Positions 12,004-55,735 of a stretch of 64,000 nt of DNA are shown one piece after another. Source of the DNA: Acidimicrobiaceae bacterium (GTDB taxonomy: Bacteria > Actinomycetota > Acidimicrobiia > Acidimicrobiales > Aldehydirespiratoraceae). Location of the stretch: positions 4,927 to 68,926 of the forward strand of contig VYBO01000043.1 of the NCBI GenBank assembly GCA_009844405.1, given 5' to 3'. Below the pieces are notes generated by a model, which had not been told where the DNA came from, did no database searches, and was given only the letters and a program-made list of their open reading frames with translations. A program made the position numbers and the translations under genes. The first letter of the stretch is position 1. Every line of letters starts with the position of its first letter.

Positions 12004-13037
12004 CTAGTCATCTGCGTCGTGCTTCATCACGTAGTAGGCAGACCGCTTCACTCCGTGCATCTCGAGCCTGCCTTCGTCTCGCAGGCGGCGCAGCAGGCGA
12101 CTAGCCCTCTCGGAGTCAATCCGACACAACTCGGTGGCCTCCCGTCGAGTGATCGATCCATTCCGGTCTACGAAGGTGAGAACCATCTGTTCCTGTTGGA
12201 TGTCATCGAAGCCACGGGCACGCACGTACTGGGACGGATCACCGAGACGCTCATATAGAGAGGCGGCTAGGTGGTAGGTCCTCCCCTTGCCGTCACCTCG
12301 GGCCTCAAGCAGCGAACGGTCGACCAGGCTATTCAGTGAGGCCCGTGCGTCGTGTTGGTCGACTTGGAACAGCTCGGCAGCACGAGCGGACGTAATGCGA
12401 AGCTCAAGACGGATCTCGTGCAAGGTCAGGAGGTCCTGGAGAGAGAACTCTTGACCGCCACGTCGCGCTTCCACGATGAAGCTGGCCAGTTCCCGGTCAG
12501 CCGGTCCTGACCTGACCCTCGCAATCACCGTTCCTGCGGTGCTTTGGCTGTAGTCAGGCGCAGGTCTACCAAGTGCCAGCTGACTGGCAAAGGCTCGATT
12601 GATGCCCCTGCCGGTGCGCTCCACTAGTCCCGCCCGCTTGAAAGCGTCAGCCAATGCCGGATTGCGCGCGCGAGGTGGCGTGATGAGCAGGTTGCGAGTG
12701 GTGATGCCCTCAGGCAACCCACCAGGATTGGACACGACGAGGGCGTCACGCGTGACCTCTACGATCGTTGGTCCCGGGAGTGTGAAGTCACGGCTGGCTC
12801 GGTCTTGTTGACGATCAGCGATTGCAGTCGATTCGGATGTGTCTCGCTGCCATGGCGCGGTTCGGCGCCGACCACGTTGCCTTCATCGTCGACGCCAACT
12901 AGAAGAACCCCACCGCTGCCGTTGGAGAGGCAAGCTACAGCTTCTACGAGGTCGGAATCGTTGATGGATCCGCCTTTGAACTCCGCGGTGAGCGTTTCTC
13001 CCCGAATCAGGAGGTCTCGCAAGTGGTCCGAATCCAT
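12004..13037 (-). pseudogene. Remnant of AlbA_2 / HATPase_c_4 / wHTH putative DNA-binding ATPase (RecG-like annotation family), internal deletion plus frameshift
   Basis: ORF 12759..13037 encodes an AlbA_2-like N-terminus (GETLTAEFKG...GGVLLVGVDDEGNVVG). ORF 12004..12735, in a different frame, starts at the very end of a HATPase_c_4-like domain (VSNPGGLPEGIT...RNPALADAFKRAGLVERTGRGI) followed by a wHTH. About 150-200 aa expected between the two pieces are absent. The region has locally lower GC. Confidence 0.65.
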
Positions 13038-13179
13038 ACTCCTGCTTTAATATGGTCTTTTACGTTTACCTACATCTTTGCGTATTCGCTCAAATCTATA
13101 CGTGTTTGGGTATGACAAGTTCGCTGGCGGTCATGCGCTGGTACACCATGCCTTCGGCGAATCGAGCAACGCGGGCGGG

Positions 13180-13288
13180 CCGCCTAGATCGTTGAGCTAG
13201 GCCGCGCGGTTCATCTCCGACCTCGCCGACAGCGGTGACCCGAGTCGGCACCCGCCTAGATCGTTGAGCTAGGCCGCGCGGTTCATCT
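13180..13288. repeat. Perfect 37-bp direct duplication (13180-13216, 13252-13288) separated by a 35-bp unrelated filler; 72-bp unit
   Basis: ccgcctagatcgttgagctaggccgcgcggttcatct occurs twice, read directly from the sequence. The second copy touches the stop codon of the 13287..13754 gene. Confidence 0.95.
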
Positions 13289-13754
13289 ACGCCAAGACCG
13301 GGCAGGCGGTGAGCTTGTAGGTGTTGAGGCGCTTGCGCAGGGTGTAGAGCAGCAGGGCCACCGCCAGCAGGCCCACGGAGGGCTGCACCGGCGCCCACCA
13401 CGACAGCGCTCCGCCCACACCGACCAGGGCGACCACCGCTTGGTTGCACACCGGGCAGCCCACGGCCAGGAACGACACGAACCCGCCCCAGATGGTGCGG
13501 GTGCCCTGGCGCTCGGCGGCCTCGGCCAACCCGCTGGACTCGGCCGGCTCGGGACGGATGGCGAAGATCAGCCCGATCAGGGCCGAAGTGACCGCCAGGA
13601 TCACATAGTCGATCCATCGCACGGGCACCGGCCGGCCGAAGATCGGGGTGTCGATCAGGTCGGACGGCACCGCGATCAGCACCGCCGCGACGGCCCCGAA
13701 CAGCACCGCCCGCGGCCACGTGGCTCGGGGCAGAGCCAGCAGATCCTTGATCAT
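13287..13754 (-). CDS. Integral membrane protein with CPVC motif, function unknown
   Basis: 155 aa with about 4 predicted hydrophobic helices and a GCPVCN motif in a helix. No family is confidently recognised. Confidence 0.6.
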   Translation of the reverse strand: MIKDLLALPRATWPRAVLFGAVAAVLIAVPSDLIDTPIFGRPVPVRWIDYVILAVTSALIGLIFAIRPEPAESSGLAEAAERQGTRTIWGGFVSFLAVGCPVCNQAVVALVGVGGALSWWAPVQPSVGLLAVALLLYTLRKRLNTYKLTACPVLA

Positions 13755-17024: not shown

Positions 17025-17880
17025 CTAGACGCGGTTGAGTGCCCGCCAGACCCGCTCGGGAGTGAAAGGGATCTCGAACAGGCGAACGCCAGTGGCATTG
17101 ACGATCGCCGATCGAACTGCGGGGGCGATGCTGTCCACGCCGATCTCCGCCACCGCCTTCGCTCCATAGGGTCCGCTGTCCTCCATGGTCTGAACCAGGA
17201 TCACTTCGATCTCGGGCATGTCGTCAGCCCGGTAGATGCGGTACGGCCCGAACGCGGGGTTGATGCAGCGGCCATTGCCGTCGTAGACCATCTCCTCGCA
17301 GATGGCGTATCCGAGCGCTTGCATCATGGCGCCCTCACGCTGACCCGAGGCGGGTCGAGGGGGATGACCGCCTCGGGGCCGGCCTCCCCCCTTGCATCAT
17401 GGCGCCCTCACGCTGACCCGAGGCGGTGATGGGATTGATGGCAACGCCGCAGTCGATGGCCATCACCAGCTTCTTGGCGGTGACCTGCCCGGTCTCCACA
17501 TCGACCTCGATCTCGGCGAACTGTGCCGCCCAGGGCGGCGGAGACTCCGGCGACACGTAGGAGGCCTGGCCCATGATCTGGTGCTGCTCGTCCTGGTGAA
17601 GCGAGTTGAGGGCGACCTCCTCCAGCGACACCGACTCCCCGGACGGCGCCCAGGCACGCCGGTCGCGCAACTCGATGGTGCAGGGCACTTCGACGCCGAG
17701 CATCTTCGCGGCCCGCTCCTTGATCTGCCACCAAACTGCTTCGGCCGCCTTCTTGGTGGCGGTGCCCGAGATGTACGTCGTGCTCGAGGCGTAGGCGCCG
17801 GTATCGAAGGGCGTCACGTCGGTGTCGGACGAGTAGATCAAAATGTCCTCATCAGGGAACTGGTGAACATGCGCCAGAAA
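17025..17880 (-). pseudogene. Xanthine dehydrogenase/aldehyde oxidase family molybdopterin-binding subunit, C-terminal fragment only, frameshifted by a 73-bp insertion
   Basis: ORFs 17335..17841 and 17025..17327 together encode ...DTDVTPFDTGAYASS...AIDCGVAINPITASGQREGAMMQ|ALGYAICEEMVYD...YGAKAVAEIG. This is the last ~280 aa of a CoxL/XdhB-like protein. The N-terminal ~450 aa are absent. Confidence 0.75.
17318..17426. repeat. Perfect 36-bp direct duplication (17318-17353, 17391-17426) separated by a 37-bp filler; 73-bp unit
   Basis: cttgcatcatggcgccctcacgctgacccgaggcgg occurs twice. The filler is gtcgagggggatgaccgcctcggggccggcctccccc. Removing one copy plus the filler restores the xdh reading frame. 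Confidence 0.95.
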
Positions 17881-18273: not shown

Positions 18274-19923
18274 GTGCCGGTGGGCATCGTCCGCGACGCC
18301 CACACCATGACCCCGCAAGGCCACTCCCCGACCGGATCCCGAGCTGCGGTGTCGGCTGGCCATGTAGAAGCCACTCGGGCCGCAGCAGTTCTGCTTCGCG
18401 CGGGCGGATCGGCGGTCGACGCGGCCATCGGGGCCGATGCGGTCATGGGGGTGGTGGAGCCTACCGGCGCCGGCGTCGCTGGAGATCTGATGGCTGTCTT
18501 GGCCACTCGCGAGGGAGTCTCAGTGCTCAACGGCAGCGGCCGCTCGGGGCGGGGCACGGACGCGGAGTCGGTGCCCGACAACGGCCACGGCTTCGTGCCG
18601 TCCGCCGGAGGATGGGCGGTGACCGTGCCGGGGGCGGTGACCGCATGGGAGGACCTGCACTGGCCCGTCTGCTGGCGCTGCCAGTTCGGGGACCCCCTGC
18701 CGGGGGCGGTGACCGCATGGGAGGACCTGCACGGCCGGTTCGGCCGGTTGCCATGGCCGTCGCTGTTCGAGCCGGCCATCGAGGCCGCCACCGAGGGCGC
18801 CGAGGTCGGCGCGACCGGGAGCCGGCTCTGGGAGGGTTCCCGAGGCCGGCTGGACGCCGCAGGCGAGGCGCTCTACTTCCCGAACGGCGCAGCCCCCGTG
18901 GCGGGCGACGTGTGGCGCAATCCACCCCTGGCCGAGGTGCTGACGCAGGTCGCAGCCGACGGTCCCGATGCCCTGTACCGCGGCCCGCTGGCCCGGGCCG
19001 TATGCGAGGCCGCCACCGCGGCGGGCGGGCGCATGCACATCGACGACCTGGCCGAGCACCGCAGCGAATGGGTCGACCCGCTGCGAGCGGGCCTGGGGGA
19101 GCACGAGCTCATCACGGCGCCGCCTCCGTGCCAGGGCGCGGTCACGGCTCTCGCTGCCGAATGGGTGCACGACCGGGGCCTGCTCGGCGCCACCCGGGAC
19201 GATGCCGGAGCCGAGGCCGCGGCATCCATGGTCGAGGCGCTCGACCGCGCCTTCGCGTTGGCCCTGGACTGCCTGGCCGACCCAGCCGTAGCCGAAGTGC
19301 CTGGTTACAACGAGATGAGGGCCCGGATGGCTGGCGCGCCGCGACGCGGACCGATGCCGCTGGGGCCGGGAACGGTGTTCACGGTGGTGTTCACGGCCGA
19401 GCAGGCAGTGGTGCTGACCTCCAGCGTGTGCGACCGGTTCGGGTCGGGAGTGACCGTGCCCGAGGGCGGCTTCGTGCTGCAGAGCAGGGGACGGGGCTTC
19501 TCCACCGATCTGAGCCACCCGAACGCGGTGGCACCCAACAAACGCCCCTACCACACGATCGTTCCCACGCTGGTGCTCGAGAACGGCCAACCCATGCTGG
19601 GCATGGGAGTAGTAGGCGGGATCATGCAGCCCCAGGGCCAACTGCAGATCCTGCACCGGGTACTCGGCGGCGCGGACCTGACCGCCGCCGTCGAAGCCGG
19701 CCGGTTCCGCCTGATCGGCGAAGGGCAGGTCACCACGGAAGCCAGCCTGGAGCCCGAATGGCGAGCCGCCATCGGCCGAGCCGGCTATGACCTCGTCGAC
19801 ACAGCCGACGTGATCGGCGGCTTCGGCGGCGCCCAAGCCGTCCTGAGTGCAGGCGACACCCTGACCGCGGCCAGCGATCCCCGCCGCGACGGCGCCTCAG
19901 CCCTTATCGGGATGACTGACTGA
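18274..19923 (+). CDS. ggt: Gamma-glutamyltransferase family protein carrying a 24-aa in-frame insertion
   Basis: GGT-family features are present, including the conserved T in PYHTIVPT (autoprocessing site region) and GGIMQPQGQLQ. The insertion WPVCWRCQFGDPLPGAVTAWEDLH is encoded by 18661-18732. Confidence 0.85.
   Translation: MPVGIVRDAHTMTPQGHSPTGSRAAVSAGHVEATRAAAVLLRAGGSAVDAAIGADAVMGVVEPTGAGVAGDLMAVLATREGVSVLNGSGRSGRGTDAESVPDNGHGFVPSAGGWAVTVPGAVTAWEDLHWPVCWRCQFGDPLPGAVTAWEDLHGRFGRLPWPSLFEPAIEAATEGAEVGATGSRLWEGSRGRLDAAGEALYFPNGAAPVAGDVWRNPPLAEVLTQVAADGPDALYRGPLARAVCEAATAAGGRMHIDDLAEHRSEWVDPLRAGLGEHELITAPPPCQGAVTALAAEWVHDRGLLGATRDDAGAEAAASMVEALDRAFALALDCLADPAVAEVPGYNEMRARMAGAPRRGPMPLGPGTVFTVVFTAEQAVVLTSSVCDRFGSGVTVPEGGFVLQSRGRGFSTDLSHPNAVAPNKRPYHTIVPTLVLENGQPMLGMGVVGGIMQPQGQLQILHRVLGGADLTAAVEAGRFRLIGEGQVTTEASLEPEWRAAIGRAGYDLVDTADVIGGFGGAQAVLSAGDTLTAASDPRRDGASALIGMTD
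18626..18732. repeat. Perfect 35-bp direct duplication (18626-18660, 18698-18732) separated by a 37-bp filler; 72-bp unit
   Basis: tgccgggggcggtgaccgcatgggaggacctgcac occurs twice. The filler is tggcccgtctgctggcgctgccagttcggggaccccc. Confidence 0.95.
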
Positions 19924-55614: not shown

Positions 55615-55646
55615 GCCCCCAGCGTATGGGCGCAATCCCCCGCTGG

Positions 55647-55735
55647 ATTCTCGGGTCGGTTGTAGGCGCTGTACGCGAAGAACCAACCCGAGAATCCGCC
55701 GACACAATCTCGGGTCGGTTGTACGCGCTGTACGC
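55647..55735 (+). promoter_or_regulatory. L1-R-L2 alternative-pairing element in the fxsA/selA divergent region
   Basis: L1 attctcgggtcggtt (55647-55661) and R aaccaacccgagaat (55681-55695) are complementary at 14 of 15 positions. A 28-nt copy of L1 plus its loop recurs at 55708-55735 with 1 mismatch. Confidence 0.5.

Follow-up and report, generated by a model that had tools for sequence, protein, structure and literature searches.

Repeat-flanked inserts in a sponge-associated Acidimicrobiia genome as probable ectopic spacer integrations by its type I-G Cas4/Cas1-Cas2

Three short units, each made of a direct duplication around an unrelated filler, lie in the stretch of 64,000 nucleotides analysed here (the window). 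The window is C1:4927-68926, part of one contig of a 150-contig, 3.35-Mb draft with 69% GC, the metagenome-assembled genome (MAG) of a sponge-associated member of the Acidimicrobiia. Judged from sequence data, each unit is very probably an ectopic spacer integration by the type I-G adaptation module of this genome, Cas4/Cas1-Cas2, which belongs to its CRISPR system. A sequence-only reading of the window had proposed off-target Cas1-Cas2 integration as the source of the units. The idea is supported by a matching I-G system, by fillers that are not templated, by empty sites for units 2 and 3, and by insertion sites that resemble a leader-repeat junction. We infer the catalysis by the resident Cas4/Cas1-Cas2, as well as the timing of the events. 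The three units are built as follows:

Unit 1, copy 1: 13180-13216, CCGCCTAGATCGTTGAGCTAGGCCGCGCGGTTCATCT, 37 nt, 100% identical to copy 2, period 72
Unit 1, filler: 13217-13251, 35 nt, spacer-like
Unit 1, copy 2: 13252-13288, abutting and overlapping the stop codon of the minus-strand gene 13287-13754
Unit 2, copy 1: 17318-17353, plus strand, 36 nt, period 73, preceded by ...CCGAGCG
Unit 2, filler: 17354-17390, plus strand, 37 nt
Unit 2, copy 2: 17391-17426, plus strand, 36 nt
Unit 3, copy 1: 18626-18660, minus strand, 35 nt, period 72, within the gamma-glutamyltranspeptidase gene (18274-19923, plus strand)
Unit 3, filler: 18661-18697, minus strand, 37 nt, including GCGCTGCCAGTTCGGGGAC
Unit 3, copy 2: 18698-18732, minus strand, 35 nt

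The geometry first noticed in the window is present at all three loci, with exact direct copies of 35-37 bp, unrelated fillers of 35-37 bp and periods of 72, 73 and 72. The true duplication of unit 1 is probably 36 nt, with one more nucleotide of chance identity. Unit 1 had also been placed directly after the stop of a gene. In the minus-strand gene mentioned above, which encodes 155 aa, the stop codon coincides with the end of the second copy, and the unit lies just past this stop.

The genome contains a single cas1 match. It is located on contig C17 within a complete type I-G operon:

Cas7g/Csb1: C17, 400-1647
Csb2: C17, 1651-3381
Cas3g: C17, 3378-6332, 682 bits (TIGR02621)
Cas3-extension protein: C17, 6329-7255
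Cas4g/Cas1g fusion: C17, 7262-8956, 750 bits to NF049935
Cas2: C17, 8961-9260

All of the type I-G signature genes (Cas7g/Csb1, Csb2, Cas3g and the Cas4/Cas1 fusion) are present by the NCBIfam models TIGR02570, TIGR02165, TIGR02621, NF049934 and NF049935. A 171-nt leader ends with ...CACGCGAGCG (...GCGAGCG) and is followed by the 36-nt repeat GTTTGGCCGGGCACGTGCCCGGCCCTCCATTGAAGG at the end of the contig. The array continues in reverse orientation on contig C139, where it has 11 repeats of 36 nt, spacers of 35-38 nt and periods of 71-74. The window had led to the prediction of repeats and spacers of about 36 nt each, and these are the dimensions of the only adaptation module of the genome.

The number of such units turned out to be much greater than three and far above what chance would give. 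Over the whole assembly, perfect 34-nt direct repeats were found 42 times at period 72, 17 at 73, 10 at 74, 12 at 71 and 7 at 70, and 0-4 times at nearly every other period from 50 to 99. The sole exception is period 65, a scaffolding artefact formed by 55-nt overlaps beside 10-N gaps. From these repeats we manually curated a set of orphan units, leaving out the true CRISPR array, the GCTGCCAATTC-type hairpin repeat family and coding tandem repeats. The set contains 51 loci with perfect duplications and 53 spacer-like fillers. About 28 more loci with periods of 70-75 have unique fillers and 1-4 mismatches between the copies, and are therefore older events. Thus, the first reading, which counted three events, erred in scale only, since the genome holds about 50-80 of them, or approximately one per 40-65 kb. 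The periods of the orphan units are 72 (29), 73 (11), 74 (6), 71 (4), 70 (2) and 75 (1), in agreement with the canonical array, where they are 72 (4), 73 (3), 74 (2) and 71 (1). If the duplication is taken as 36 nt, the fillers have a mode of 36 and a range of 34-39 nt.

It could be supposed that the metagenome assembler made the units, for example by chimeric joins at k-mer overlaps. The draft does contain real scaffolding artefacts, since the period-65 peak consists of 21 exact 55-nt duplications around 10-N runs (for example, C105:18932 and C94:22082). The orphan units, however, have no Ns, and their duplication is 36 nt, compared to an assembler overlap of 55. They carry a specific 8-nt junction motif which is the same as that of the CRISPR leader-repeat junction, and their size matches the resident array. 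Similar units are found in an independently assembled, complete single-contig congener, and an assembler has no means of making unique foreign inserts of 35-37 nt. We therefore consider an assembly artefact highly improbable.

The orphan units are clustered. A neighbour within 6 kb was found for 21 of the 51 loci, when 7.3 ± 3.4 were expected; the three units of the window, which lie within 5.5 kb, are an example. Possibly, this is caused by local tolerance, by island DNA or by scanning by the integrase. Five orphan loci with 8 spacers are located within 3 kb past the trailer end of the array on C139, at 10931, 11784, 12260 (2 spacers), 12645 and 13020-13310 (3 spacers). The last of them is a neo-array of four repeats and three spacers about 470 bp past the trailer end of the true array. 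It interrupts the gene for a HipA_C kinase (toxin), at the catalytic motif DAKNYSLLLEAD. Of its repeats, the one most distant from the pseudo-leader carries 2 mismatches, which recalls the decay of trailer repeats. In total, three orphan loci hold 2-3 spacers.

The insertion sites share a short motif. AGC beginning 3-4 nt before the duplication, on either side, was found at 30 of the 51 loci; 300 trials with random sites gave 7.7 ± 2.5 and never more than 16. Using an expectation-maximisation (EM) alignment, in which each locus chooses its own orientation, we obtained the logo A(-4) G(-3) C(-2) N / G(+1) Y Y G(+4), that is, AGCN/GYYG, where the slash marks the junction. The seven motif positions hold 3.67 bits, compared to 0.80 ± 0.22 (maximum 1.38) in 100 random-site runs. 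The rest of the 36 bp outside the junction motif contains no more information than random sites. The motif matches the leader-repeat junction of the genome itself, AGCG/GTTTGG. As an independent yardstick, we fetched 80 loci with Cas4/Cas1 relatives from sponge-associated Acidimicrobiia MAGs, the closest of which carry the name Candidatus Aldehydirespirator, and the junction was read in 73 of them. In these related I-G loci the leader ends with G-C-G-A-G-C-G and the repeat starts with G-T-Y-Y-G-G; AGC occupies positions -4 to -2 in 52 of the 73.

Among the units of the window, the match to the motif is full for unit 2, partial for unit 3 and poor for unit 1. The last four bases before unit 2 (AGCG) are those of the CRISPR leader, which puts the leader-like side on the plus strand. 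In unit 3 the leader-like junction is weak (GGCC/GTGC) and lies on the minus strand. The duplicated "repeats" differ at every locus and resemble the CRISPR repeat in the first ~4 nt at most. Measured from AGCN/, the duplication is 36 nt long in 16 loci, 37 in 8, 38 in 3, 39 in 2 and 40 in 1. No shorter value occurs, and a distribution of this kind is expected if an exact 36-bp duplication were sometimes prolonged by chance identity with the end of the spacer. Because the junction motif is present and the duplication is never below 36 nt from AGCN/, a short motif like the leader junction would position the first cut, and the site of the second would be set by a 36-bp ruler, no sequence requirement being detected there.

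By analogy with the published Cas1-Cas2 and I-G Cas4/1 chemistry, a Cas4/Cas1-Cas2 complex would carry a processed prespacer of about 36 bp. The first strand transfer would take place at a chromosomal site similar to the leader-repeat junction (...AGCN/GYYG...). The second would follow on the opposite strand after 36 bp, a spacing that the ruler of the enzyme, and not the sequence, would determine. Gap repair would then duplicate the 36-bp target on both flanks of the spacer. The order of attack and the roles of Cas4 and Cas1 in this scheme are taken from published work on type I-G (PMC10274657; PMC6547450).

We compared the loci with those of relatives, where sites lacking the unit would be expected in the case of insertion. 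This expectation was borne out for units 2 and 3, which are lacking in every congener with the locus (about 20-24), the target being present there as a single copy. The intergenic DNA around unit 1 is unalignable. At the unit 2 locus, approximately 24 congeners (71-76% DNA identity) and a paralogue on C58 align in two pieces that overlap on one target copy, with a clean 73-bp gap in the congeners. For unit 3, a clean 72-bp gap with one target copy was found in about 20 congeners that are up to 86-89% identical.

The consequences for the genes are different at each locus. Unit 2 (73 bp) shifts the frame of a minus-strand molybdopterin-binding MoCoBD_2 gene, splitting it into the open reading frames (ORFs) 17335-17841 and 17025-17327. 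Positions 95-249 and 246-283 of the MoCoBD_2 profile fall in these two separate ORFs. Because the domain is split over two ORFs, unit 2 is read as a frameshift, which is predicted to knock out a paralogue of a xanthine-dehydrogenase/CoxL-type molybdo-enzyme. Unit 3 (72 bp) adds 24 in-frame codons to the gamma-glutamyltranspeptidase, and unit 1 is an intergenic insertion. A genome with 69% GC has long spurious open frames, and restoration of ORFs by in silico excision of the units is uninformative. When the units are not recognised, genes are mis-called in annotation, as with the gamma-glutamyltranspeptidase and the split molybdo-enzyme gene.

The empty sites also bear on the suggestion that mobile elements imported the units as genuine mini-CRISPR arrays or solitary repeat units, in which case they would not be insertions into host sequence. 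Mini-arrays of the repeat-spacer-repeat type are known in viruses and proviruses (review PMC8616872). In our case, what appears as "repeats" is coding sequence of the host, which relatives have as one unbroken copy, so the empty-site alignments contradict an import. Each locus has a different repeat, and none is like the CRISPR repeat past the first 4 nt. A bona fide array has a conserved repeat family, typically with at least 3 copies; the repeats of the units are unique host sequence, with two copies each in the window. Import in this form is extremely improbable.

The possibility that the fillers are local templated copies had been raised together with the Cas1-Cas2 idea. It turned out that 51 of the 53 fillers have no match elsewhere in the genome. 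All 53 differ from one another, and their GC of 71% equals that of the canonical spacers. As for the two exceptions, one filler is identical over all its 35 nt to C59:22990-23024, and the other at 33 of 36 positions to C146:25249. The C59-derived filler, which we take as the only self-derived one, sits in the unit C92:6577-6685. Past its end, five more nucleotides (AGTAG), with which the duplicated target begins, are shared with C59 (C59:22990-23029). Either microhomology of the prespacer end with the off-target site or coincidence (about 1 in 500) could account for this extension.

Replication errors such as template switching, fold-back synthesis or slippage would give a tandem duplication with a templated filler. 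Errors of this kind do make short tandem duplications, and the genome has many ordinary tandem repeats at other periods. But the 51 fillers without a match are neither copies nor reverse complements of near or distant genome sequence. Replication error predicts neither a fixed 36-bp duplication, nor a 34-39-bp filler, nor a preference for AGCN/GYYG, and it leaves the clustering beside the CRISPR array unexplained. It is therefore hardly a credible source of the units.

A few fillers are traceable to phage- or plasmid-type genes. When all 63 orphan and canonical spacers were concatenated and compared by blastn with 50,697 phage records, only insignificant matches were obtained (E-values of 0.07-0.9). 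At C28:24287 and C46:7167, two unrelated orphan units hold different spacers that overlap one conserved 19-mer, present in 27 IMG/VR contigs. The 19-mer lies in the C-terminal domain of a DnaB-like helicase (IAKNRHG region; viral loci L018-L044), and the two spacers are offset by 1 nt. This suggests repeated sampling of one position proximal to a protospacer-adjacent motif (PAM) in diverged mobile elements. The unit 2 filler has one 23-nt exact match, in the tape-measure gene of an IMG/VR viral contig, and weak matches of 86-89% in two cultured phages, so that a phage origin of this filler is suggestive only. Fillers 1 and 3 gave no exact match in the IMG/VR scans. The sole outside match of the unit 1 filler, which has no other copy in the genome, is 27/28 nt in the gene of a LysM protein on one metagenome contig; by a rough estimate, it may be due to chance. 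In the unit 3 filler, GCGCTGCCAGTTCGGGGAC resembles the GCTGCCA(A/G)TTCG hairpin-repeat family of the genome, and no full copy of it exists in the assembly.

We also assessed whether the units accompany cas1 in relatives. Three Cas1-less and three I-G-positive genomes were sampled in part, and events within one genome are not independent:

G018: no cas1, 400 kb, 0 clean units
G051: no cas1, 400 kb, 0 clean units
G041, the closest relative: no cas1, 214 kb, 0 clean units
G005: I-G, 400 kb, 2 clean units
G006: I-G, 400 kb, 0 clean units
G023: I-G, 180 kb, about 12 clean units

The Cas1-less samples thus contain 0 units in 1.0 Mb, compared to about 14 in 1.0 Mb of the I-G carriers. In this small sample, the counts agree with dependence on the I-G module. 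G023 is the complete single-contig congener mentioned above (MAG OZ220727.1; sample G023:C1:1000001-1180000), and its density of units is above that of the genome of the window. An orphan unit of the 36+37 type is located in it at the 3' end of its own cas4/cas1 gene (L141:4110-4218). In another related I-G locus (L174:4611-6100; MAG OZ241331.1), an array of more than 20 repeats lies beside a normal Cas4/Cas1-Cas2, and all of them have the repeat GTTTGGCCGAGTGTTAACTCGGCCAAACGGCTCGGC. Only its first 8-9 nt are as in the family consensus, and the conserved ...CCATTGAAGC 3' end is absent. This repeat may have taken over as a replacement or as a neo-derived sequence.

A non-Cas machinery with a long staggered cut (an integrase, a transposase, a casposase-like enzyme or a lost Cas1 homologue) could also be considered, with the match to I-G being coincidental or historical. 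About 40% of the sites have no AGC motif, and one sample of an I-G-positive relative has no units, as such a machinery would allow. On the other hand, the inserts all differ, so no mobile element is being copied, and we know of no transposase whose target duplications measure 36 bp. Only a single gene of the Cas1 family is present in the genome, the site motif is the conserved leader-repeat junction of the I-G clade, and among the sampled relatives units were found only in I-G carriers. In the source genome, nothing positive speaks for such a machinery, and we regard it as quite unlikely.

Several points weigh against ectopic integration by the resident I-G module. The units are known from the assembly of a 150-contig draft MAG. 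About 40% of the loci have no clear AGC motif, and unit 1 is among them: its best junction, CGTA/GATG, fits only about 4 of the 7 positions, and the intergenic DNA around it does not align with relatives. Unit 1 is provisionally assigned by its geometry, which is identical to that of the other ~50 units. A PAM could not be derived from the only two protospacer-like matches in the genome, which have no consistent TTN-type flank. The sample of relatives is small and partial, and one of its I-G genomes, G006, has no units. Finally, the Cas4/Cas1 protein has no departures at 224 conserved columns. An altered Cas4/Cas1 was thereby ruled out as the cause of the many units, and the high load is therefore not explained by an obvious change in the enzyme.

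Off-target spacer integration is known as the neo-CRISPR reaction from Escherichia coli over-producing the type I-E Cas1-Cas2, with a 28-nt repeat and a 33-nt spacer (Nivala, Shipman and Church, Nat Microbiol 2018, as cited in PMC7054753 and 10.1101/148544). Wild cases are described as circumstantial, in two species (10.1101/148544). In the literature searched, E. coli over-producing type I-E is the only experimental demonstration of off-target integration, and the wild examples are circumstantial. As in the neo-CRISPR reaction, a target duplication of repeat length surrounds an insert of spacer length at non-CRISPR sites, the sites resemble the leader-repeat junction, and some units gain further spacers. 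Unlike those in E. coli, the events described here are natural and are attributed, from sequence evidence, to a type I-G Cas4/Cas1-Cas2 (36+36). They number about 50-80 per genome, are fixed in the assembled population, and have both gene-breaking and in-frame coding effects. The phenomenon is the known neo-CRISPR reaction; the present case differs in that it is natural, of type I-G, very numerous and has clear coding consequences.

In canonical type I-G (formerly I-U) adaptation, Cas2 acts together with the Cas4/Cas1 fusion (Almendros et al. 2019, PMC6547450; Cas4/1 dual-nuclease study, PMC10274657). It uses the same genes (Cas4/Cas1 fusion and cas2) and 36-nt repeats, and the leader-side and then the spacer-side transfer duplicates the repeat. 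In the canonical case spacers are integrated only at the array's leader-repeat junction, whereas here only about 8 nt of this junction are mimicked, and arbitrary host sequence makes up the remainder of the "repeat". Repeat-spacer-repeat units away from cas genes are also known as viral and proviral mini-CRISPR arrays and solitary repeat units (Faure 2019 and Medvedeva 2019, as reviewed in PMC8616872). Their repeats are copied from the host CRISPR repeat and lie on mobile elements, whereas each of our units has a repeat of its own, derived from the host sequence that it interrupts. The window's genome provides a natural data set of about 50-80 events for another subtype, I-G with its Cas4/Cas1 fusion. 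The specificity can be read from the sequence as an 8-nt junction motif plus an exact 36-bp ruler, with nothing required inside the repeat. CRISPR adaptation would then have a measurable mutational cost, either gene disruption or in-frame peptides. New CRISPR arrays may be born by stray integration, and the data set contains concrete intermediates. A database-wide survey reportedly proposed that orphan mini-arrays can arise by spurious spacer insertion into random sequence, an idea common to the present case. To our knowledge, that survey did not describe a single genome in which dozens of events could be linked to the leader motif of the genome itself.

Taken jointly, these results lead us, by a slight preference, to a broader reading: stray integration is an important and continuing mutational process in sponge-symbiont Acidimicrobiia with type I-G. 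A junction of about 8 nt (AGCN/GYYG) and a 36-bp ruler would suffice for it, and it would knock out genes, write 24-residue peptides and seed arrays. If this is true, the genes knocked out include the molybdo-enzyme paralogue and the HipA toxin kinase. The new arrays seeded would be the three orphan loci that have reached 2-3 spacers, the oldest repeat of one of them decaying in a trailer-like way.

One orphan unit of 71 bp (C17:250-357) lies in the cas operon itself, in a 220-nt gap between the stop of the upstream gene, which is probably cas8g/csx17, and the start of cas7g at 400. A broken interference gene was considered as the cause of the many units and rejected, since this unit is between the stop and the cas7g start, outside any coding frame. 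A 190-aa ORF at this unit is a high-GC artefact.

Two dispersed hairpin-type repeat families, GAATTGGCAGC...GCTGCCAATTC and AATCTCGGG...CCCGAGA, often form tandem pairs with periods of 59-72 bp. Such pairs (for example, C109:4240, C116:12763 and C64:26063, and 55634-55735 in the window) can be mistaken for spacer units, so they were not counted. At C112:17545-17660, more than 100 nt are almost exclusively G, probably through an artefact of sequencing or assembly. A 75-bp unit at C3:64043-64185 has 1 mismatch between its copies, and the duplicated sequence resembles a tRNA 3' end (GGGAGTTCAAATCTCCCC, read on the opposite strand). A tRNA gene at C3:64043 was searched for with ARAGORN, which found none; the duplication may be the remnant of an att site.

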